From Sminthopsis crassicaudata (Eukaryota), in contig NC_133620.1 in assembly GCF_048593235.1 (NCBI RefSeq), positions 318,633,765 through 318,697,764 on the forward strand: a DNA stretch of 64,000 nucleotides, written 5' to 3'. The notes under the pieces were generated by a model. It ran no database searches, was not told where the DNA came from, and was given only the letters and a program-made list of their open reading frames with translations. How positions within the stretch are numbered: the first letter of the stretch is position 1; the number at the start of each line of letters is the position of its first letter. Position numbers and translations under genes: made by a program. Shown in pieces: positions 1,572 to 53,889 of this stretch.

Positions 1572-2615
1572 CTCCGTCCTCTCCCTGGGGGTCACCCTCA
1601 CCATAGCAAAGATTTATCTTTTTTTTTTTTTTTTTCCCCAATTCTTTCCATTTGAAACATGAGACTGAAGCTCTCCCCTGGGAGTCCAAGTCTGGAACAC
1701 CTCCTAGCACAACTAGGTAATGACCGACTCTTTGCGGTAAGTTTCCGAGCCTCTTATCTTAATTAACCTTATCTAGATGAGAAGACTAATGGGGACAATA
1801 AAGCTATTATCTATCCTCCCCTAACTTGTTCGAGGCACTAGGTAAGTGCATAATAAAGGCACCGTGCCTGGCACTCAGCAGGCGCTTAGTAGATGCTTGA
1901 ACCTGACTTTGGGGCCTTTCTTGGGATGAATAAACGCTTGCAGACTATTGGTCTGTCTTTGTATCCTCATGGCTCGGCTCGAGACCTGGCACACAGCAGG
2001 CGCTTAATGCTTGTTGACTTGAGAAGCGCTCCACGGAACAAATAAAGGCCAGCCGGCTAATATCACTCGAAACTGCTAAGTAGAAGAAGGGGGATACAGT
2101 CAGTCTGGGATGCCCGGTCTGGGAAGCGGGTGATTTCGGGCGCACGTGGCAGCACAGGGGACGAGTGGGAGCCCGGCCCGGCGGGGATGGCTACCCGTGC
2201 CTGCAGCCGGGGCACGATGGGGGAGGGCAGGGGCCCTGCCGCCCACTCTCCCAGCTCCTCCAGGAAAGCCCAGAGTTTGTCTACTTCGCAAAGTGCTTCT
2301 CTTTCACTCCCCAGTGCGGCCCCTCCCTCCCCTCTGCTCCCGCTTTGCCGCATTCCCTCTCGGCTCCCCACTCCTCCTCCCCACCTTCTGCTCTCTCCTT
2401 CCTGCCGCACCAGGCCCCCTCCGTCCCCACCCCCAGGCAGGCTGGTACCGAGCGCCCTCAGCCTTTCCTCCCAATGGGCTTTAAGCCTCCTCCACGCCCC
2501 CGCCTCCTCTGCCTTTCTCCAGAAGGACACAAGCCCTGACGAATCGGTGCACGAGGACGGTCCGTTCGTCTCCGCCCCTGACGCCCTCCCCCGTTTTCTC
2601 CTCCTCTTGCTCTTC

Positions 2616-2624
2616 ACCAATCAG
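2616..2624 (+). promoter_or_regulatory. CCAAT box (NF-Y type, ACCAATCAG)
   Basis: ACCAATCAG in the CpG island upstream of exon 1, followed by a GC box GGGCGGG at 2638-2644. Confidence 0.5.
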
Positions 2625-2651
2625 AGACAGAGTGCGTGGGCGGGACGGCTG

Positions 2652-2664
2652 GTTGCTTAGCGAC
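2652..2664. promoter_or_regulatory. RFX X-box-like motif GTTGCTTAGCGAC
   Basis: Near-palindromic match to the RFX consensus GTTGC-N(2-3)-GCAAC in the proximal promoter. Confidence 0.5.
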
Positions 2665-2844
2665 GGCCGAAAGTGGGAGGAGGGAGAGCTGCCGGCAGGC
2701 CCGGGGGCGCTGCTATCCCTGGGCAAGGGGGCGGCGGCATCGGCGGAGGCAGAGGCGGTGTCGTGGTGGTAGTCGGCTCGGCAGCGGCTCGGGCGGCAGC
2801 TGCGGGCAGGAGGCGGAGCCGCGGGGCGGCGGGACTGGGGAGAC

Positions 2845-2851
2845 TATAAGA
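2845..2851 (+). promoter_or_regulatory. TATA-like element TATAAGA
   Basis: AT-rich TATA-like word in a GC-rich context, about 20 nt after a GC box (2823-2829) and about 30 nt before a pyrimidine-rich stretch (about 2874-2889) that could be the initiator. Confidence 0.4.
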
Positions 2852-2955
2852 GGTGCCGCGGGTGCTCCGCGTTCCACTCTTCTTTTTCCGGTACTCCGGG
2901 CTTCGCCTAGCCGTTGCTCCCACTCCGGTCTATGGTGCAGCCGGGACCCAGGACC

Positions 2956-3003
2956 ATGTCGCGCTCGGAAGAGGTGCACCGACTGACGGAGAATGTCTAC
3001 AAG
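2956..3003 (+). CDS. BAIAP2: BAIAP2 (IRSp53) coding exon 1, MSRSEEVHRLTENVYK
   Basis: Peptide matches the IRSp53 N-terminus (human MSLSRSEEMHRLTENVYK). Start context ACCATG; donor AAG|GTGAGC at 3004; phase 0. Confidence 0.96.
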
Positions 3004-5190
3004 GTGAGCCCGCCGCGCCTCCGGAGGGGGCAGCGCGTCCTGCCGTGCCCGCACCCGCCCTGGCGCCGGGCGCCCGCAGCCCCCGGGACCCGTGCCGCCG
3101 GCCCGTTCCCGCTCCGTGCCCCTCCGTGCCCCGGCGCAGCTGCTGTGCTCCGCTTCGCCCTGCTCCTGGCCGCCCCTGCCGCGGGGCTAATCCTCTCTTC
3201 CCCTAATTCCCTCGCCCCAGATCTGTGGGAGCTCCCGCTCCTGGAGGCTTGCTCCCCTAAGTTAGCTCCCCTCTGTCGCCCACCTCCCGAGGCGCCCGTG
3301 CCCTGGGCGGGCAGCTTCCCCAGAGCCGGGAGGTGCCCGGCGGGAGAGGCTCGTTCTGCTCACGCCCGGGGCGGCCCGCGTACGCGCCTCGTGGGGGGCA
3401 CAGGCAAAGCGGGGCGCTGTGGGGGGTGCAAAGGCAAGGAACGTGTCAGGGGCTTCCCCTCCGAGCGGCCCTGCCGCTGCCCGGGAAGCTGGGAATCCAC
3501 TTCTAAGTGCCTTTCCCAGCAGATCGAGTTCAGCTTAGGTCGAGATTTTCTCTCTGTGATCAGCCAAGCCCGCCACCTACCTACCTGTTCTTTAGTGGGC
3601 GGCTGTCCTGTGCTACTGACGCGAGGCGGACTCGGGGGTCTCTCCCAGTGCCGCTGTAGTCACAGGTGGCGCGCTGGCACGTCTGACCTTAAAGGCGGCT
3701 CTTGAGAGCGGGCGCCTTGGCCGTCGTGGTGACACTGAACTCTCGGAGTTCCCTGTGCTTCCCACAAAATCCTCCATAACTTTTTCCCCTCCGGGTGTGG
3801 GGAAGGGCTTTGTTTTTTCTGTTTTGTTTTTAGTGGTGGGGGAGGAGAAAAAATTCAGACCATCTTGTGTATAGTGAGTGTAGAGGATCATCCATTCCGT
3901 GAATAAAAAGGCAGGACAGAACATAGAAGCAAACAGAAATTTGCCAGTGGCCTAGAAAGCTACACAAAATAAGACTGGACAACATTCAGAGTAAGAATTA
4001 AGCTGTAGTTATCAGTTAACAGTTCCCAAGCGGCTGGAATTTTACTGTCTCTTCATGCCTTGCTAGGTCTTCCAACTGCTGTTATGCAAGTATTTTTTAC
4101 TTACGATTAAGATTTAATTCCTTCAGGGCTTTGTGCTGTGGGAAATTGCTAAATATTCTATTGGGGGGGGGCTTTGTGGGTAGGGGCAGATGAGTGGATG
4201 GATAATTTAGCTTATATAACTTGATGGTGGTAGTGGTGAGCCTAATTGGGGAGAAGTAATTTAAAAGCTGCTTCAGTGACAGTCAGTTCTGCTCTATCGA
4301 ATAGCCAGATAATAGTCAGATTCCTATCCTTTGACTTTTAAAATGCAGCCTCAATTCTGAACCTGCATAGCCCTGATGGATACCACTTCAGCATTTGAGC
4401 TCACCACCGCCCCAGCAAATGGGTGGTTCCAGAAACAGGAAGAAATCTCTATCATTTTTATATGTTGGANNNNNNNNNNNNNNNNNNNNNNNNNNNNNNN
4501 NNNNNNNNNNNNNNNNNNNNNNNNNNNNNNNNNNNNNNNNNNNNNNNNNNNNNNNNNNNNNNNNNNNNNNNNNNNNNNNNNNNNNNNNNNNNNNNNNNNN
4601 GCAGATCCAATCCATGGGGATCTGCTGAAAAAAAAAATAATAATTTTAGTTAGGCAAATTCCTGATCATCGGAAACATAATGCTATTCCTTTTTGTGCTG
4701 CTAGGTCTGAAGGTGAGGCAGTAGTCAGTAAGATTAGAATGGCCAGTATTTATATTGCAGTTACTGGTTTACAGCTAGCTTACCAAGTAGAATTGCAGTA
4801 CACTCACTCTCTGCAAAGCAACAGTTTTTGATTGCCAAACAGCCATGGCTGTGCCTTCTGAGTCAGTGGACTGTGAAGTAAACCCTTTTAACTCATTCTG
4901 GGGCATATTCCATGGAAGCTCCTGGGACAGCCCATTTGGTTTTTAACAAGAGTCTAAGAGACAGAATGTACTTTTAATAATTTGGCTTTTATTTCATAAA
5001 GCCCTTAAAACTGTAGCTGTAGAATTTGGAGAGAAATTTGAAGTTGATCTAGCTATCTAAATCAGTTTTGAAGACATATTAAGTCTTCTATTCCTTTGCA
5101 TAATTTCCGTGGTATCCTTTAGAAAGGATCAAGTAAGGAGTAAGCTCACTGAAGGAAACAGCTCTCTAGCTCCAATTTCTTCTCTGAAAA

Positions 5191-17150: not shown

Positions 17151-17810
17151 TTTTGGAATTATGCTCAAAAAGTTATCAAACTGTGCATACCCTTTGACCC
17201 AGCAGTGTTGCTACTGGGTTTGTATCCCAAAGAGATCTTAAAGAAGGGAAAGGGACCTGTATGTGCAAGAATGTTTTGTGGTGGCCAGAAACTGGAAACT
17301 TACGTGGATGTCCATCAGTTGGAGATTGGATGAATAAATTGTGGTTATATGAATAGTATGGAATATTATTGTTCTGTAAGAAATGACCAACAGGATGATT
17401 TCAGAAAGGCCTGGAGAGACTTGCATGAACTGATGCTGAGTGAAATGAGCAGGGCCAGGAGATCATTATATACTTCAACAACAATACTGTATGCTGATCA
17501 ATTCTGATGGATGTGGCCCTTTCCAACAATGAGATGAACCAAATCAGTTCCAATAGAGCAGTAATGAACTGAACCAGTTACACCCAGTGAAAGAACTCTG
17601 GGAGATGATTATGAACCATTACATAGAATTTCCAATCCCTCTAATTTTGTCCACCTACATTTTGGATTTCCTTCACAGGCTAAATGTATACTACTTCAAA
17701 GTCTGATTCTTTTTGTTCAGCAAAACAACTGTTTGGTCGTGTATACGTATATTGTATTTAATTTATACTCTAACATATGTGACATGTATTGGTCGATGTG
17801 TCATTGGGGG
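17151..17810 (+). mobile_element. L1 fragment (ORF2 C-terminus and 3' UTR)
   Basis: Near-identical to the 52580-53150 L1 text (aaaagttatcaaactgtgcataccctttgacccagc). Confidence 0.88.
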
Positions 17811-28128: not shown

Positions 28129-29088
28129 ATCAAGCCGTTCTCCAATTCATAAATGGTCAAAGGATATGAACAGCCAATTTTCAGATGAAGAAATTGAAAC
28201 TATTTGTAGTCACATTAAAAGATGCTCTAAATCACTACTGATCAGAGAAATACAAATTAAGACAACTCTAAGATATCACTACACACCTATCAGATTGGCT
28301 AAGATGACAAGAAAAGATAAAGACGCATATTGGAGAGGATGTGGGAAAACTGGGACACTGATACATTGTTGGTGTAACTGTTTCTACTGGGCTTATATTC
28401 CAAAGAGATATTAAAGAAGGGAAAGAGACTCACATGTGCAAAAATTTTTGTGGCAGCCCTTTTTGGGGTGTCAAGAAACTGGAAACTGAATTGATGCCCA
28501 TCAATTGGAGAATGGCTGAATAAATTATGGTATATGAATGTTATGGAATATTAGTGTTCTCTAAAAAATTACCAGCAGGATGATTTCAGAGAGGCCTGGA
28601 GAAACTTACATGATCTGTTGGCAAGTGAAATGAGCAGAACCAGGATATCATTATACACTGTAACAACAAGATTATAGGATGATCCATTCTGATGGACAGT
28701 GGCTCTCTTCAACAATGATTCAAACCAATTCCAATTGTTCAATGATGGAGACAACCATCTTCATCCAGAGAGAGGCCTGTGGGAGCTGAGTGTGGACCAC
28801 AACATAGCATTCTCACTCTTTCTGTTGTTGTTTGCTTGCATTTTGTTTTCTTTCCCAATTTTTTTTCCCTTCTTGATGTGATTTTTCTTGTGCAGCATGA
28901 TAACTGTATAAATATGTATACATATATTGGATTTAACATATTTAACATGTATTGGACTATCTGCCATCTGGGGAGAGGGTTGGGGGAAGGAGGAGATAAT
29001 TGGGAACAGAAAGCTTTGCAAGGGTCAATGTTGAAAAATTACCCATGCAACTGTTTTGTAAATAAAAAGCTTTAATTAAAAAAAAAAA
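28129..29088 (+). mobile_element. 5'-truncated L1 with poly(A)
   Basis: ORF2 C-terminal peptide (28166-28414), 3' UTR and poly(A); 13-bp TSD agaactta(c/t)attc at 28116-28128 and 29089-29101. Confidence 0.93.
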
Positions 29089-40515: not shown

Positions 40516-41038
40516 CTTATAAGTGCATAGTTATTTGCATGTTGTTTCCTCCAATAGAATGTGTGCTCTTTGAGGGTTGGGGCATATGCCTAGAGCTTAT
40601 CATATTGTCTGACTCACAGTAAGCTTTTAATGAATGCTTGTTAACTGAGTAAGGGACTAGCCATAATGGAATGTTTTGGTTTTCCTTATACAGGCAGTCT
40701 TGCTTTATATAAATGCAGCCCTCTAGTTTAAGATTATGTAATTCTAATTTATTGAAGCCATGGGGAAGGCTTCTGACTAAGGGAAGCATGAAGAGGGTCC
40801 CATGACTGGAAGGAGAGGGCCCAGCATATGGTTCAAGGACCTTAGGGTCTTGGGTACAGAGAAGTGAGTGTGCACAAGGATAGTTTGATAGAGTGGGGCA
40901 TAGATCTCTTCTCTTCAAGAAGGAGGTCTGAAGCCAAGTTTCTGTCTTGCAATGATGGTTTCTCCCCATTAGTTCTTCAGTTTTCACTTAGACGGTTGGA
41001 TTTTGTTTTATTTTGTGAGTTTTTTTGGTGGGAGTTAG

Positions 41039-41443
41039 TGTTAGGATTACTAGGTGAGAACTCAGGTTGTCTGGACAGTGACAAGGTGAGAATTCAGGTT
41101 GTCTGGACAATTACAAGGTGAGAACTCAGGTTGACTTGATGGAAGGAGCAGGCTCATTGGCTGAGGTGGTTCTTCCCAGAAGCCCTTGCATTATCCCACG
41201 CCCATTCTCTGGGAGAATAAAAGAGAGGACTCCCAGAGATAGAAGAAGACTCTGCATTACATCAGCCCTGACGGGGCTCTCTGCAGGAAGGGAAGTCACT
41301 TCTAAGGACAAGAGTTAACAGCAACTGTCTGGAGACAACGGTTCACTACAGGAAGAAGAATCTGTCTGAGAGATTTGAGTAGACACAGCAGATCTCTTCC
41401 CAGAGAGCAATCCAGCAGCTTCTGGAGACGACAGCTCGCTACA
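41039..41443 (+). repeat. 5' LTR (405 bp)
   Basis: Starts TGTTAGG, ends CTACA, followed by AT and a PBS; homologous to 44036-44445. Confidence 0.95.
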
Positions 41444-41445
41444 AT

Positions 41446-41463
41446 TGGCGCCCAACGTGGGGC
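41446..41463 (+). other. Primer-binding site, tRNA-Lys1,2 (CUU): TGGCGCCCAACGTGGGGC
   Basis: 18/18 complement of the 3' end of vertebrate tRNA-Lys(CUU)+CCA, 2 nt after the LTR end. Confidence 0.95.
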
Positions 41464-41514
41464 AAGGACTTTTGCTTATCCTGACAAGAGGAGCTAGACC
41501 AGACCTTCGCAATT

Positions 41515-41532
41515 TGGCGCCCGAACAGGGAC
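41515..41532 (+). other. Second primer-binding site, tRNA-Lys3 (UUU): TGGCGCCCGAACAGGGAC
   Basis: 18/18 complement of the 3' end of tRNA-Lys(UUU)+CCA, the same sequence as the HIV-1/MMTV PBS; preceded by CA-ATT (41510-41514). Confidence 0.92.
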
Positions 41533-41594
41533 AGACACGGTCCTGATTCCAGTGGAAAAGCCTCCCATCCAGATCTCAGTCTCTCTGACCCAGA

Positions 41595-41603
41595 ACCGTG
41601 AGT
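41595..41603 (+). promoter_or_regulatory. Putative retroviral major splice donor ACC|GTGAGT
   Basis: GTGAGT at 41598-41603 in the leader between the PBS and the gag ATG, the usual position of the major splice donor. Confidence 0.6.
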
Positions 41604-41700
41604 AACAAGGAAACTTTGTTAAAGATTAAGTGAGCGTGCTAATAGATAAATAAGGAACTTAACTTGTTAAGGGCTAAACCAGGAATCTCTTATAGCTGAA

Positions 41701-43570
41701 ATGGGGCAGATGTTAGCTATATTCAATCCCTGGACCTCAGCCGACTCAACCCCAGCCCCAGAAGCAACCTCAGCTCCACCCCCATTCAGGAGTGGTACTA
41801 TAGAGAGTATAATCAACATAATTGAGGAGCAGAGTTTACTTGTAACCTGGGTACAGATTGCTAAACTCTTGGCTGCATTAAGATGCACATCCCCTTGGTT
41901 CTTAGAGGAAGAAAAGATAGATGTAGATAAATGGAAGCTAGTGGGATATGAAATGAAAGAATTTCAAGCAAAAAATGGGCCTCGTTCAATTTCTGCAGAA
42001 GTATTTTATATCTACAACATAGTTCAATTAGCCTTAAACTATCAAGCAAGTTGTAGGAGAAGGAAAAGTTCTAAAAATGAACAGAGGAGGAAGTGTGAGG
42101 AAAAAAGGAAAGATCAAGATCTTTCCCTAGAGCAAGAGGATTTAAATGAGGAATTATGGTATGATTCTCTTGAAGAAGCTTCAACCCTGCCTAGAGAACA
42201 GATTATTGACAGGCCCACATCAACCCCACCTTCAGAGATGGAGGAAGAAAGAGGGGAAGAGGCAGAAACACAAACAGAATTGCCTGTGAAGCAGCCTAAA
42301 CCTATGACAAGATTAGAAAAAGCATTGGTTAAAGCTAAGAGAGAAGGACAGGATATAAGTGATTTTATACATGCATATCCTGTGATTGAAGAGATTGACT
42401 CTGTAGGTAAAAAAAGGAGAAGATATGCACCTTTAGATTTGAATAAAATTAAGGATTTGAAAAAAGGTTGTACCCTTTATGGGGCTACATCAGCTTATGT
42501 CAAAAATGTTACTAGATGGTTTGTCTTATGAAGTCCTAACCCCGAATGATTGGAAATCCATAGCAAGGACATGTCTGGAACCTGGAGAAAATTTATTATG
42601 GCTTGCGGAATTTCATGAATTATGTAAAATTCAAGTCAGATGCAATTTGGAAATAGGAGTTAACACACAATTCACTTTTGAGCACTTAGCTGGTGAAGGT
42701 CAGTATGGAGAGAATTCGGAACAGATTAATTATACCATGACAATATATGAACAAATTGCTAAGGCTGCAATAAAAGCTTGGGGTGTCCTTCCTGGACAGA
42801 AAGATCGTGGAGAGGCTTTCACTAAAATACAGCAAGGTCCCAATGAACCTTTTGCAGATTTTGTGGGACGTTTGCAAACTGCTGTCAAAAGAACTATTGG
42901 AGAAAATGCAGCTACAGAAATAATGACCAGACATCTGGCTAAGGAAAATGCCAATGAGATTTGCAAAAGAATTATATGGGGATTAGACAAAGATGCTCCT
43001 TTAGAGGAGATCATAAGACGCTGTGCTACAGTGGGAACAAATGCTTTTTACACCCAGACAATGATGAATGTGGAAAGGCAGGGTCCCTCCTGGCAAGGGA
43101 CTTCTAGAGAAACTCGGCGATGTTTTCAATGTGGAAAAATTGGACATCTAAGAGCTCAGTGTAGGTATGGAGATACAGTGAGAAGACAGGGTGAAAGAAG
43201 ACCTAAAACCCCATGTCCAAAATGCAACAGAGGACTCCATTGGGCATCAAAGTGTAGAATAATTCAGGGAAATGGGATGAGGGGCCCAGGTCCAGGGCCC
43301 CAGGCAAAAAAGACTTGGGGCATGATGGCAGCTGATGTTACACCCAAAGAGCCTTTAGAAGGTCAGGACTCTGATGTGATCAACCAGCAGAAATGCAATC
43401 ACATGGCAGAAAGGGATTATCTGATAGTCAGCCAAAAGGCAATCAGATTGCAAAAATGGATTACACTTGGGGAGAATACAGGCCTTTTAAACCAACAGGG
43501 CTGTGTCCAGTGCAAACAAATCCAATGTAATTGCCAGATGATGAGAAGAGATTTAAAAAGTGGTAAATAG
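41701..43570 (+). pseudogene. gag: Betaretrovirus-like gag interrupted by one +1 frameshift near 42502-42506 (ORFs 41701-42531 and 42479-43570)
   Basis: MGQ myristoylation-type start; MA-like WF..W..VG motif; CA with YGATSAY/LTPNDW and MHR QGPNEPFADFVGRL; NC knuckles CFQCGKIGHLRAQC and CPKCNRGLHWASKC. Removing one A gives a 622-aa ORF. Confidence 0.93.
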
Positions 43571-43727
43571 AAGGAAATTAGATAAGTTGGCTGCCTGGGA
43601 GAGAGGGTTTGCTTGTATTTCTTCAGCAGGAGAAGGAATCAGATGGGTGCCAATGAGTCATATTCGCCTTGTCCATCAGAGAAAGACAGAAAAAGAGAAA
43701 GACCTCAAAATAAAGGAGAAGATCTAA
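43525..43727 (+). pseudogene. pol: Integrase C-terminal remnant of pol
   Basis: Translates as RDLKSGK*K.../LDKLAAWERGFACISSAGEGIRWVPMSHIRLV, matching the IN C-terminal W.GPD..WGRG(F/Y)AC..RW(I/V)P pattern, with a TGG>TAG stop and a 1-nt shift. Confidence 0.75.
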
Positions 43728-44019
43728 GAAACATCTTACACCGAAAGAGCATGGCTAATAAAAAGACTGTTAAAGAACTTTAAAACCAGCAGGAATCATT
43801 GGACTTCCTCACACAAGATGAGACTAATGGACAATGGACTTATGGACATTTATAAATTTTCAATTTATGATTATTTGATTATGTTATTTGTTATATACTT
43901 CTAGCATGTGTTATGTTACTATGTTACTATGTGCTTATGTAATTTATGTAATTATGTGTAATACTTCCCATATTGATAGATTTATGTTTCAAGGTCATGA
44001 CTGTCCTATGTTCTAAATC

Positions 44020-44035
44020 AAAAGAAAGGGGGAGA
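44020..44035 (+). other. Polypurine tract AAAAGAAAGGGGGAGA
   Basis: Purine run directly abutting the 3' LTR TG; typical of betaretroviral PPTs. Confidence 0.92.
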
Positions 44036-44445
44036 TGTTAGGATTACTAGGTGAGAACTCAGGTTGTCTGGACAGTGACAAGGTGAGAATTCAGGTTGTC
44101 TGGACAATTACAAGGTGAGAACTCAGGTTGACTTGATAGAAGGAGCAAGCTCATCGGCTGAAGTGGTTCTTCCCAGAAGCCCTTGCAATATCTCACGCCC
44201 ATTCTCTGGGAGGATAAAGAGGACAGCACTCCAGGAAGAGGGGAAGACTCTGCATTGCATCAGGCTTGACGGGGCTCCCTGCAGGAAGGGAATTTCACTT
44301 CTCTGGACAAGAGTTAACAGCAACTGCCTGGAGACAACGGTTCGTTACAGGAAGAAGAATCTGTCTGAGACATTTGAGTAGAAGACACAGCAGATCTCTT
44401 CCCAGAGAGTGATCCGGCAGCTTCTAGAGACGACAGCTCGCTACA
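44036..44445 (+). repeat. 3' LTR (410 bp)
   Basis: Preceded by the PPT; starts TGTTAGG, ends CTACA, followed by the TSD. Confidence 0.95.
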
Positions 44446-45349
44446 AGTTAGGATGCGAAGTTATAGAGCTGAGGGGGCAGGAAAAGACTAACAACAAAAC
44501 AGCATGGTTTTTTTTTGGAATGTGACTTTATTTGAAAATTCTTTACATATGGTTGAACTTGTATAAAGTAAGAAATATCTGTACAGAAATTTTTATAGCC
44601 TTCAAGTACATAGGACTATGATAATTTTTCCTTCTTTAGCTTCTCTTTTCTTACCACAGTTAAGATAAGGTACAGATAATAAACCATTTATAAACCTGAG
44701 TTGTTTGGGTTCACTGTTTCCTTCTAACAGCTGTCTGGTTTGGTATCAACTAATGTTTGGGGCTATTTTTGAGCCTTCTGATAAAAGTGGTTCTTTGGTC
44801 TTAATAGCAAAATTTCTTCTAATTCCTTAGTATAAGAACTTCTGATTGTTGGCACTTAATGGTCCTTCATGGTCCTTCATGGAATATAGAACTAGTTGGA
44901 ATATTCACAGCTTGGGAATATTTATCTCATCAATACTGATATCTGATTAAATATTACAAAATATCACAAATGTTTATGGAACCATAGTGAAAGAGAACTT
45001 TAGAGATCATCTAGTTTAGCTCCTACTTTGAAGATTAGAAAATGAAGTTCAGGCTAGAGCATTACTTCATGTTTGAGAAATATCTGTCTGGCATATTTAT
45101 ATATTGAGAAACCTGACTAAAGGTTCAGAGCCAGAAGAAGTCTTTGAACATCTTTTCCAAGTTTATTCATGCTGTATCAATGTGATATTAGTGATGCTAT
45201 GAAAACACATTTGTTGCCAAAGTATCTGTATCTTTTATTCTCTCTTCTCCCCTCTGCTTTCTCCTTTCTGACCAGAATTTGGTTTATTTCAGATAGCAAT
45301 ATCTACCTGGGATATTAATGTTTTGCTTTCTTTCTCTGTGTCTTTACAG

Positions 45350-51362: not shown

Positions 51363-53889
51363 ATCCTCAGCATTTTTATACATTAACAACACAATCCAAC
51401 AGCAAGAGATACAAAGAGAAATTCCATTCAAAATAACGGTCGATAGTATCAAATATTTGGGAATATATCTACCAAAGGAGAGTCAGGAATTATATGAGCA
51501 AAATTACAAAACACTTGCCACAAAAATAAAGTCAGATTTAAATAATTGGAAAGACATTTAGTGCTCTTGGATAGGCCGAGCAAATATAATTAAGATGACA
51601 ATACTCCCTAAACTAATCTATTTATTTAGTGCTATACCAATCAGACTTCCAAGAAACTATTTAAATAACCTAGAAAAAATAACAACAGAATTCATATGGA
51701 ACAACAAAAGATCGAGAATTTCAAGGGAAGTAATGAAAAAAAAATTAAGTGAAGGTGGTCTAGCTGTACCTGATCTAGAACTGTATTATAAAGCAACAGT
51801 CACCAAAACCATTTGGTATTGGCTAAGAAATAGACTAGTTGATCAGTGGCATAGGTTAGGTTCACAGGGCAAGATAGTGAATAAAAATAGCAATCTAGTG
51901 TTTGACAAACCCAAAGATCCCAAATTTTGGGATAAGAATTCATTATTTGACAAAAACTGCTGGGAAAACTGGAAATTAGTATGGCAGAAACTAGGCATGG
52001 ACCCACATTTAACACCACATACTAAGATTAGATCAAAATGGGTCCAAGATTTAGGCATAAAGAACGAAATCATAAATAAATTGGAGGAACATGGGATGGT
52101 TTACCTCTCAGACTTGTGGAGGAGGAAGGAGTTTGTGTCCAAGGGAGAACTAGAGACCATTATTGATCACAAAATAGAACATTTTGATTACACCAAATTA
52201 AAAAGTTTCTGCACAAACAAAACTAATGCAAACAAGATTAGAAGGGAAGTAACAAATTGGGAAAACATTTTTACAGTTAAAGGTTCTGATAAAGGCCTCA
52301 TCTCCAAAATATACAGAGAATTGACTTTAATTTATAAGAAATCAAGCCATTCTCCAATTGATAAATGGTCAAAGGATATGAACAGACAATTTTCAGATGA
52401 TGAAATTAAAACTATTTCCACTCATATGAAAGTGTTCCAAATCACTATTGATCAGAGAAATGCAAATTAAGACACCTCTGAGATATCAGTACACACCTGT
52501 CAGATTGGCTAAGATGACAGGAACAAATAATAATGAATGTTGGAGGGGCTGTGGGAAAACCATTCTGGAGAGCAATCTGGAATTATGCCCAAAAAGTTAT
52601 CAAAATGTGCATACCCTTTGACCCAGCCATACTATTACTGGGCTTATATCCCAAGGAAATACTAAAGAAGGGAAAGGGACCTGTATGTGCCAAAATGTTT
52701 GTGGCAGCCCTTTTCATAGTGGCTAGAAGCTGGAAGATGAATGGATGTTCATCAATTGGAGAATGGTTGGGTAAATTATGGTATATGAATGTTATGGAGT
52801 ATTATTGTTCTGTAAGAAATGACCAACAGGAGAAATACAGAGAGGCTTGGAGAGACTTACATCAATTGATGCTAAGTGAAACGAGCAGAACCAGAAGATC
52901 ATTATACACTTCAACAATGATACAGTACGAGGATGTATGCTGATGGAAGTGGATATCTTCAACATAGAGAAGAGCTAATCCAATTCCAATTGATTAATGA
53001 TGGACAGAATCAGCTACATCCAGAAAAGAAACACTGGGAAATGAGTGTAAACTGTTATTTTTACCTTCTGAATCCAATTCTTCCTGTGCAACAAAAATTC
53101 GGTTCTACACACATATATTGTATCTAGAATATACTGTAATATATTTAACATGTATAAGACTGCCTGCCATCTGGGGGAGGGGGTTGGGGGAGGAAGGGAA
53201 AAAATCTGAATAGAAGTAAGTGCAAGGGATAATGTTGTAAAAAATTACCCATGCATATGTACTGTCAAAAAAAAAAAGTTATAATTATAAAATTAAATAA
53301 AAATTAAATTTAAAACAAAAAAAAAAGATAATTGTATCAGCTCTGGGATTGGCCATCAATGCCTGGGCAAGTTATGAGTATGACAGATTACTATAATACT
53401 ATTGTGGTATAAAAAGTGATGAAGGGACAGTTTCCAAAAATCTGAAAAGATTTGTATGAACTGATGCAAAGTGAAATGAACAGGAAGAAGAGAAAAACTT
53501 ATAAGATGATAAGATTATGAAGGTAATCAATTCTAAAAGACTTAGGAACTCTGATCAGCGCACAATGATCCACCACAGCACTAAAGAACTCAGGATAAAA
53601 CAAGCTAGCTCCCTCGAGATGAAGGGCTGACAGAGTAAGAGATCAAAGCATATTTTTTGGCATGGTTGAGATTGGAGTTTGCTTTATCTGATTGTGCACA
53701 TTTGTAATTGGCTTTATTTTCTTGCTTCTCAATAAGTATGTGTGTGGGGGGAGTAGAAAACAAGAGGAATAGAACTCAGCTGAAGTGTTATATCCCACTT
53801 TGGGATTCCCCTTGTGAATTCTTTTTCCTGAAATTTTAGTGCACTGATTTATCTATCTATTAAAGTGCTATTTAATCACTGTTAAAAAA
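51363..53889 (+). mobile_element. 5'-truncated young L1 (51363-53326) plus about 560 bp of 3'-transduced sequence and a second A-tail
   Basis: ORF2 C-terminal ORFs 51595-52470 and 52533-52943; L1 poly(A) ends at 53326; perfect 15-bp TSD AATTGTGTTGTTCTA at 51348-51362 and 53890-53904. Confidence 0.9.

Follow-up and report, generated by a model that had tools for sequence, protein, structure and literature searches.

Tandem primer-binding sites for two lysine tRNAs and two LTR lengths in an endogenous retrovirus family of Sminthopsis crassicaudata

Retroviruses are taken to have one primer-binding site (PBS), which fixes the U5 end of the LTR. In a stretch of 64,000 nucleotides from Sminthopsis crassicaudata (contig NC_133620.1, positions 318,633,765 to 318,697,764, forward strand; hereafter the window), an LTR element carries two such sites in tandem, each preceded by its own att-like CA, and this raises the question of which site is used by the family and what becomes of the products. 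The answer developed below is that the leader very probably holds tandem att-PBS units at which tRNA-Lys1,2 and tRNA-Lys3 prime alternatively, so that one layout gives LTRs of two lengths.

The window element and its family

The element occupies 41039-44445 (3.4 kb), with a 6-bp AGTTAG duplication flanking both ends (Table 1). An earlier reading of the letters (the sequence-only reading) had proposed two tandem sites, each an 18/18 complement of a lysine tRNA, and the host genes bear this out: genes were called with ARAGORN and then compared with both sites. Reverse-complemented, the last 15 nt of a tRNA-Lys(CTT) gene (L066) with CCA added give PBS1, and those of tRNA-Lys(TTT) genes (L064, L065), treated likewise, give PBS2. 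The same reading took this copy to be PBS1-primed with its LTR ending at the first CA, and the 3' LTR does stop there, at CTACA followed by the duplication, which makes it a short-form copy.

Table 1. Features of the LTR element in the window (window coordinates)
Feature	Position	Strand	Remarks
Left target-site duplication AGTTAG	41033..41038	.	
5' LTR, short form, 405 bp, TG...CA	41039..41443	+	att1 = CA 41442-41443; LTR end CTACA
AT between att1 and PBS1	41444-41445		
PBS1	41446..41463	+	18/18 complement of the host tRNA-Lys(CTT) (Lys1,2) 3' end; 2 nt past att1
Spacer, 51 nt, ends CGCA-ATT	41464..41514	+	att2 = CA 41510-41511, then ATT; this CA is the LTR terminus in long-form copies
PBS2	41515..41532	+	18/18 complement of the host tRNA-Lys(TTT) (Lys3) 3' end; 3 nt past att2
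Betaretrovirus-type gag, split into two frames	41701..43570	+	Gag_p10; Gag_p24, Gag_p24_C, weak zinc knuckle
Approximate site of ~3 kb extra (pro/pol domains) in longer relatives	43420..43490	+	Missing from the window copy
Polypurine tract	44020..44035	+	
3' LTR, short form, terminus at att1 (CTACA)	44036..44445	+	7.4% different from 5' LTR
Right target-site duplication AGTTAG	44446..44451	.	

The interior of the window copy is a broken gag without pol. As features of class II we found the TG...CA LTRs, a PBS, a polypurine tract and the 6-bp target duplication, and as betaretrovirus-like features Gag_p10 and Gag_p24 together with a Lys PBS. Longer relatives have about 3 kb more at the place where the window copy is without pol; the one that was scanned, of 6.5 kb, has gag, pro and pol domains (RVT_1, RVT_thumb, RNase_H, rve and RVP among them) with little room before its 3' LTR. 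We take the window copy as a gag-only, non-autonomous member of a young, betaretrovirus-like ERV family that is probably env-less.

The dual-PBS layout is a trait of this family and not the product of chance. More than 1,600 such junctions exist in the animal's own genome, where the junction region gave 1,903 candidates (98-100% identical in the 40 that were scored) and the 24-nt spacer end 1,890 occurrences, its reversed control having 0. By hand count of the first 100 matches listed, PBS2 or a point variant of it directly follows the spacer end in 87 and unrelated DNA follows in 13. The median LTR-LTR divergence is 0.2% in 49 short proviruses and 0.1% in 12 long ones; the family is young, and it is its youth that makes it near-perfect throughout.

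Several observations stand beside these. The two LTRs of the window copy are identical over their first 120 nt and 7.4% different overall, the highest value among the 49 short proviruses, with the duplication intact; this pattern suggests gene conversion or a recombinant origin, and LTR dating of the window copy would therefore mislead. Between about 1.0 and 6.3 Mb of G000:C1, many LTR copies share identical flanks (for example L190/L191 and L095/L097), which points to segmental duplications, so that copy counts are slightly inflated. One element (L113, G000:C1:45191121-45197800) holds two dual-PBS junctions 1.6 kb apart and ends in a short LTR. The predicted RNA fold of the leader is unremarkable (z 0.16). 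Elsewhere in the window, positions 2001-4000 form a GC-rich, CpG-island-like 2-kb stretch (63-66% GC), and 51562-52943 holds two long frames, the longer without Pfam match, within a repeat common to 17154-17621 and 28223-28806.

Long and short LTR ends

In 290 matches the spacer end lacks a following G at position 5. The first 30 of them comprise 12 solo LTRs with an exact 6-bp duplication right after att2 (one, in a TA repeat, being weak), 13 3' LTRs lying behind a polypurine tract, 3 mutated PBS2 junctions and 2 unclear cases. Long LTRs thus defined contain PBS1 and the spacer, terminate at the second CA and are about 68 bp longer than the short ones. Complete long proviruses were parsed in 12 cases, and every one has a 6/6 duplication (one again in a TA repeat), where the chance per copy is 3.6e-4; no matching duplication was found for L249 and L253. 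The sequence-only reading had suggested short-LTR progeny from PBS1 (Lys1,2) and longer-LTR progeny from PBS2 (Lys3), and the long form, met in solo LTRs, in 3' LTRs and in complete proviruses, agrees with it; the LTR 3' ends and duplications show that not all members end at att1, the att2 ends having exact duplications of their own.

The share of long copies was estimated on contig C1, where the first 64 listed PBS2 junctions were taken as 63 separate elements, since one tandem copy holds two of them. Sixty junctions were retrieved and 59 parsed, giving 45 short, 3 long and 11 unresolved copies, many of the last exceeding the retrieved length; exact duplications were found in 38 of the 45 short copies. 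With 1 more short and 3 long junctions added from outside that set of 60, the long share is 6/52, or 12% (95% interval 5-23%), a figure that describes integrated surviving copies at the start of one chromosome, not priming events.

Copies with a deletion in PBS2 (L094, L095, L097, L131) or without it (L227, L234) are all short, and hence PBS1 can prime alone. In L227 and L234, an internal deletion sets in directly behind the 3' end of PBS1 and leads into internal sequence, the pattern that a misdirected second strand transfer would leave. At the other site, two long LTRs (L173, L226) keep the three bases after the CA before the duplication begins, and ATT followed by a non-T after att2 was counted 22 times genome-wide against about 6 expected from rough base composition; this is the end expected of DNA that is cut at the PBS2 boundary and joined unprocessed. 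We hold it as highly likely that both sites are used.

Joined long ends were also met. A contig of sequencing run X7 has position 41514 joined via GA to the LTR start, a shape that resembles the junction of a two-LTR circle with a long end, and at L281 (G000:C4:232995600-232996900) and L282 (G000:C3:140070700-140071950) a long end, CA-ATT, lies head-to-tail on an LTR start, resembling such a junction after integration. Since a similar junction is integrated in the genome at L281, the X7 contig need not derive from free circles.

An older subfamily (576 matches) keeps both PBS with a spacer 20 nt longer, another U3 start and another leader. Twenty of its ends without PBS2 were followed: in 9 a duplication adjoins att2, without mismatch in 6 and with a single one in 3, in 3 more it begins exactly three bases later and in 1 near that place, 3 have no duplication, and for 4 no LTR start was found. 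Still more diverged LTR ends share the same spacer.

Regarding the origin of the layout, collapse of att1 to PBS2 into a single site is rare, with 19 junctions against about 3,400 that bear PBS1. One such copy (L242, G000:C1:168606650-168610950) has a collapsed single-PBS 5' end and a long 3' LTR, and at G000:C5:136282792-136288802 three collapsed junctions stand in tandem, 2,991 bp apart. PBS1 and PBS2 have their first 8 nt in common, and the collapse junctions fit initiation by both primers on one RNA or within one particle, as well as a simple deletion across these shared bases. No donor LTR family using the spacer as its own U5 was found, the search giving 6 exact spacer starts without the G-run of PBS1 upstream, and the spacer has no match longer than 8 nt elsewhere in the element. 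The older att1 and att2 ends are alike by eye. Our guess is that mispriming wrote PBS1 into the U5 of a Lys3-primed ancestor, or else that the layout arose by duplication of an att-PBS unit.

Primer choice and its alternatives

In the mechanism that we propose, the leader would carry two working att-PBS units in tandem. With tRNA-Lys1,2 at PBS1, strong-stop DNA would end at att1 and short LTRs result, PBS2 riding passively in the leader; with tRNA-Lys3 at PBS2, strong-stop DNA would span PBS1 and the spacer, both LTRs would become about 68 bp longer, and integrase would join att2 to the target. The two LTR products are seen directly, and the priming step is deduced from the rule that the position of the PBS sets the U5 end; the same rule would place the end of PBS2-primed DNA at the PBS2 boundary, three bases beyond the CA. 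Transcripts of short and long proviruses should begin with one and the same R-U5-PBS1-spacer-PBS2 leader, and for that reason the simplest interpretation is that a choice takes place in every round. The choice is likely to be made anew each time, with about 88% PBS1 and 12% PBS2 among integrated young copies.

Alternatively, there may be two stable lineages, some sources always priming at PBS2 and giving long copies, others exclusively at PBS1, the idle site being carried along. We built a tree from 56 internal regions (46 short and 10 long, 7 of the long ones retrieved on purpose; unresolved copies and those outside 2.3-2.7 kb were left out). On this tree the 10 long tips require 10 changes of state, the maximum (shuffle mean 9.4, P=1.0), and the nearest neighbour of a long copy is short in 6 of the 10, at 0.9-3.1% distance; it is long in the remaining 4, and 9 of the 10 sit in one of two main clades, which would speak for lineages. 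The tree is star-like and blurred by recombination, hence it has little power. Long ends are commoner in the older subfamily (about 45/100 against 13/100 of the matches listed), as lineages might have it, but solo LTRs accumulate with age. Against lineages stand also the identical leader in both forms and L242, in which a long 3' LTR goes with a 5' end collapsed onto PBS2. Fixed sources thus appear unlikely, and the rate of long to short copies may differ between lineages.

A second alternative would have all priming at PBS2, with att1 as a place of later trimming or internal cleavage that yields the short LTRs, and PBS1 as passive U5. It draws on a variant of PBS1 in which a C is changed to T and 1 nt is inserted, or 2 nt in the older subfamily. 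The LTR end is followed by this variant 1,428 times and by canonical PBS1 1,965 times, so that the variant makes up 42% of exact sites; it persists with no tRNA gene found for it and is not depleted in short copies, as if the site were not refreshed. It was present in 14 of 40 long ends and 19 of 44 short proviruses (Fisher P=0.51), and its distribution over the tree carries no signal (18 changes against a shuffle mean of 17.4). With 50:50 refreshing from the canonical tRNA, long ends should hold about twice as much of the variant; the equal frequency is a point against the mechanism proposed above. On the other side, copies without usable PBS2 are still short, with exact duplications in L094, L131 and L234; 61 of the 72 canonical-class PBS1 sites are perfect tRNA complements; and integrase processing is limited to the terminal 2-3 nt. 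Priming at PBS2 only is consequently very unlikely.

The source of the PBS1 variant was sought in tRNA genes. No gene templating it was present among 100 of the 139 Lys-like 3' ends listed, and further template searches in the animal's own genome gave 7, 0 and 12 matches and no tRNA gene, where masked or missing sequence could hide one. Three candidate templates were rejected as not being tRNAs, and the 16 variant matches not followed by CCA are 15 ERV copies and 1 unrelated sequence, with no tRNA among them. A primer RNA from unassembled sequence, repair favouring the parental strand, or better priming or escape are possible explanations. The younger variant (L031, L034) makes a palindrome, CACGTG, inside the PBS, an E-box motif. 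In mouse ETn/MusD, too, common mismatched PBS variants are scattered over the tree and were read as escape from tRNA fragments (PMC7472051).

As for PBS2, the sequence-only reading ascribed its perfect match to recent use or selection, and this part of it fails. Relative to the window copy, mismatches amount to 1.58% of PBS2 sites, mostly at CpG (67 indel-free of 72 copies), against 0.76% in the unanchored half of the spacer (71 copies) and 1.21% in canonical-class PBS1; PBS2 is thus no better kept than the spacer, and we rejected conservation as a sign of its use. With an LTR-LTR divergence as low as 0.1-0.2%, a perfect PBS2 match proves nothing. A deletion lies in PBS2 in 4 of the 72 sampled copies (the four named above, two of which are one duplicated locus). 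Counts exclude L001-L030, picked for likeness to the window, and L181-L187, picked for the PBS1 variant, and the leader comparison, which was ungapped and indel-inflated, was kept out of the conservation test. The idea that long LTRs arose after integration by deletion, gene conversion or assembly error, PBS2 being an unused relic, can point to this lack of conservation and to the signs of LTR conversion or recombination in the window copy, but it is largely refuted and scarcely credible, since neither deletion nor conversion would halt at one and the same CA in dozens of loci, each time beside a different, exact 6-bp duplication, or put PBS1 and the spacer in 3' LTRs behind a polypurine tract.

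Meaning and comparison with known systems

Under alternative priming, one RNA layout would give two LTR lengths, each with a working integrase end, in thousands of natural insertions, and genome sequence would let germline primer choice be counted for each age, subfamily and PBS allele. The inheritance of PBS mismatches, and the handling of 2-nt as against 3-nt overhangs by integrase in vivo, would become open to test. For annotation, it means that a single element can give rise to LTR subfamilies listed as 'long' and 'short', and that intact PBS-Lys sites, which are targets of silencing in eutherians, can be spread across the genome by solo LTRs.

Whether the layout has an adaptive role is doubtful, and we raise it tentatively. 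By analogy with the mouse elements, it could plausibly serve as a fallback when tRNA fragments specific to one isoacceptor interfere (PMC7472051). Escape from KRAB-ZFPs is less so, because mouse ZFP961 binds both Lys-type PBS, the evidence being eutherian (PMC8931336). RNA structure, or nothing more than faithful copying, could likewise account for the persistence of spacer and PBS2. A bolder version, which we would not favour at present, is that a built-in primer switch was selected and kept over at least two subfamilies as a hedge against isoacceptor-specific tRNA fragments or tissue tRNA pools, PBS1 having a third state from an unrecognised primer RNA or from repair favouring the parental strand. 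If this were true, the ratio of long to short copies and the PBS1 variant would form a datable genome-wide record of germline primer choice and of PBS heteroduplex repair.

Among known elements, ETn/MusD are class II, intracellular, and form a pair of non-autonomous and autonomous members, and the site of Drosophila Gypsy is bipartite, with parts near both RNA ends, not a tandem of alternative initiation points. As is very probable for the family studied here, Lys3 and Lys1,2 primers are both used within mouse ETn/MusD, but each element there has one PBS, and a switch replaces the site and leaves LTR length unchanged (PMC7472051). Gypsy, with two tRNA-Lys,2 binding sites, is likewise an endogenous retrovirus with two primer-binding sites and differs, by the title of its report, in using a single kind of tRNA (PMC1635307). 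By description, MEBrv 3, an env-less marsupial endogenous betaretrovirus amplified in Dasyuridae, resembles our family in its betaretrovirus-type gag, near-identical LTRs, thousands of copies, and pro/pol in the longer copies with apparently no room for a full env (PMC11334065). It is described as having gag-pro-pol without env and about 7.3 kb, compared with 6.5 kb in one longer Sminthopsis copy, and its LTR of 469 nt falls in the range of the Sminthopsis family (PMC11334065). The words 'primer' and 'tRNA' are absent from the main text of that paper, in its accessible part, and one of its supplements has no match to either PBS or to the name of the representative (PMC11334065).

In the literature covered, with subscription papers and Repbase/Dfam notes outside its scope, no ERV of natural origin was found in which two working PBS stand in tandem and LTRs come in two lengths, laboratory dual-PBS HIV-1 being the only precedent met. 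What our family shares with this laboratory kind of dual initiation is two intact PBS per leader, each defining the U5 end of integrated DNA. To go by their titles, Li et al. 1997 (PMID 9400600) reportedly obtained an HIV-1 stably keeping PBS-Gly and PBS-His, and Voronin and Pathak 2004 (PMID 15113919) are said to have observed dual initiation in two-PBS HIV vectors; both sites would then be able to initiate there, and the pair could be stable. The laboratory viruses were engineered or selected in culture, whereas the Sminthopsis family is natural, germline and present in thousands of copies, it has an att CA for each PBS, and both of its products integrate with normal duplications.
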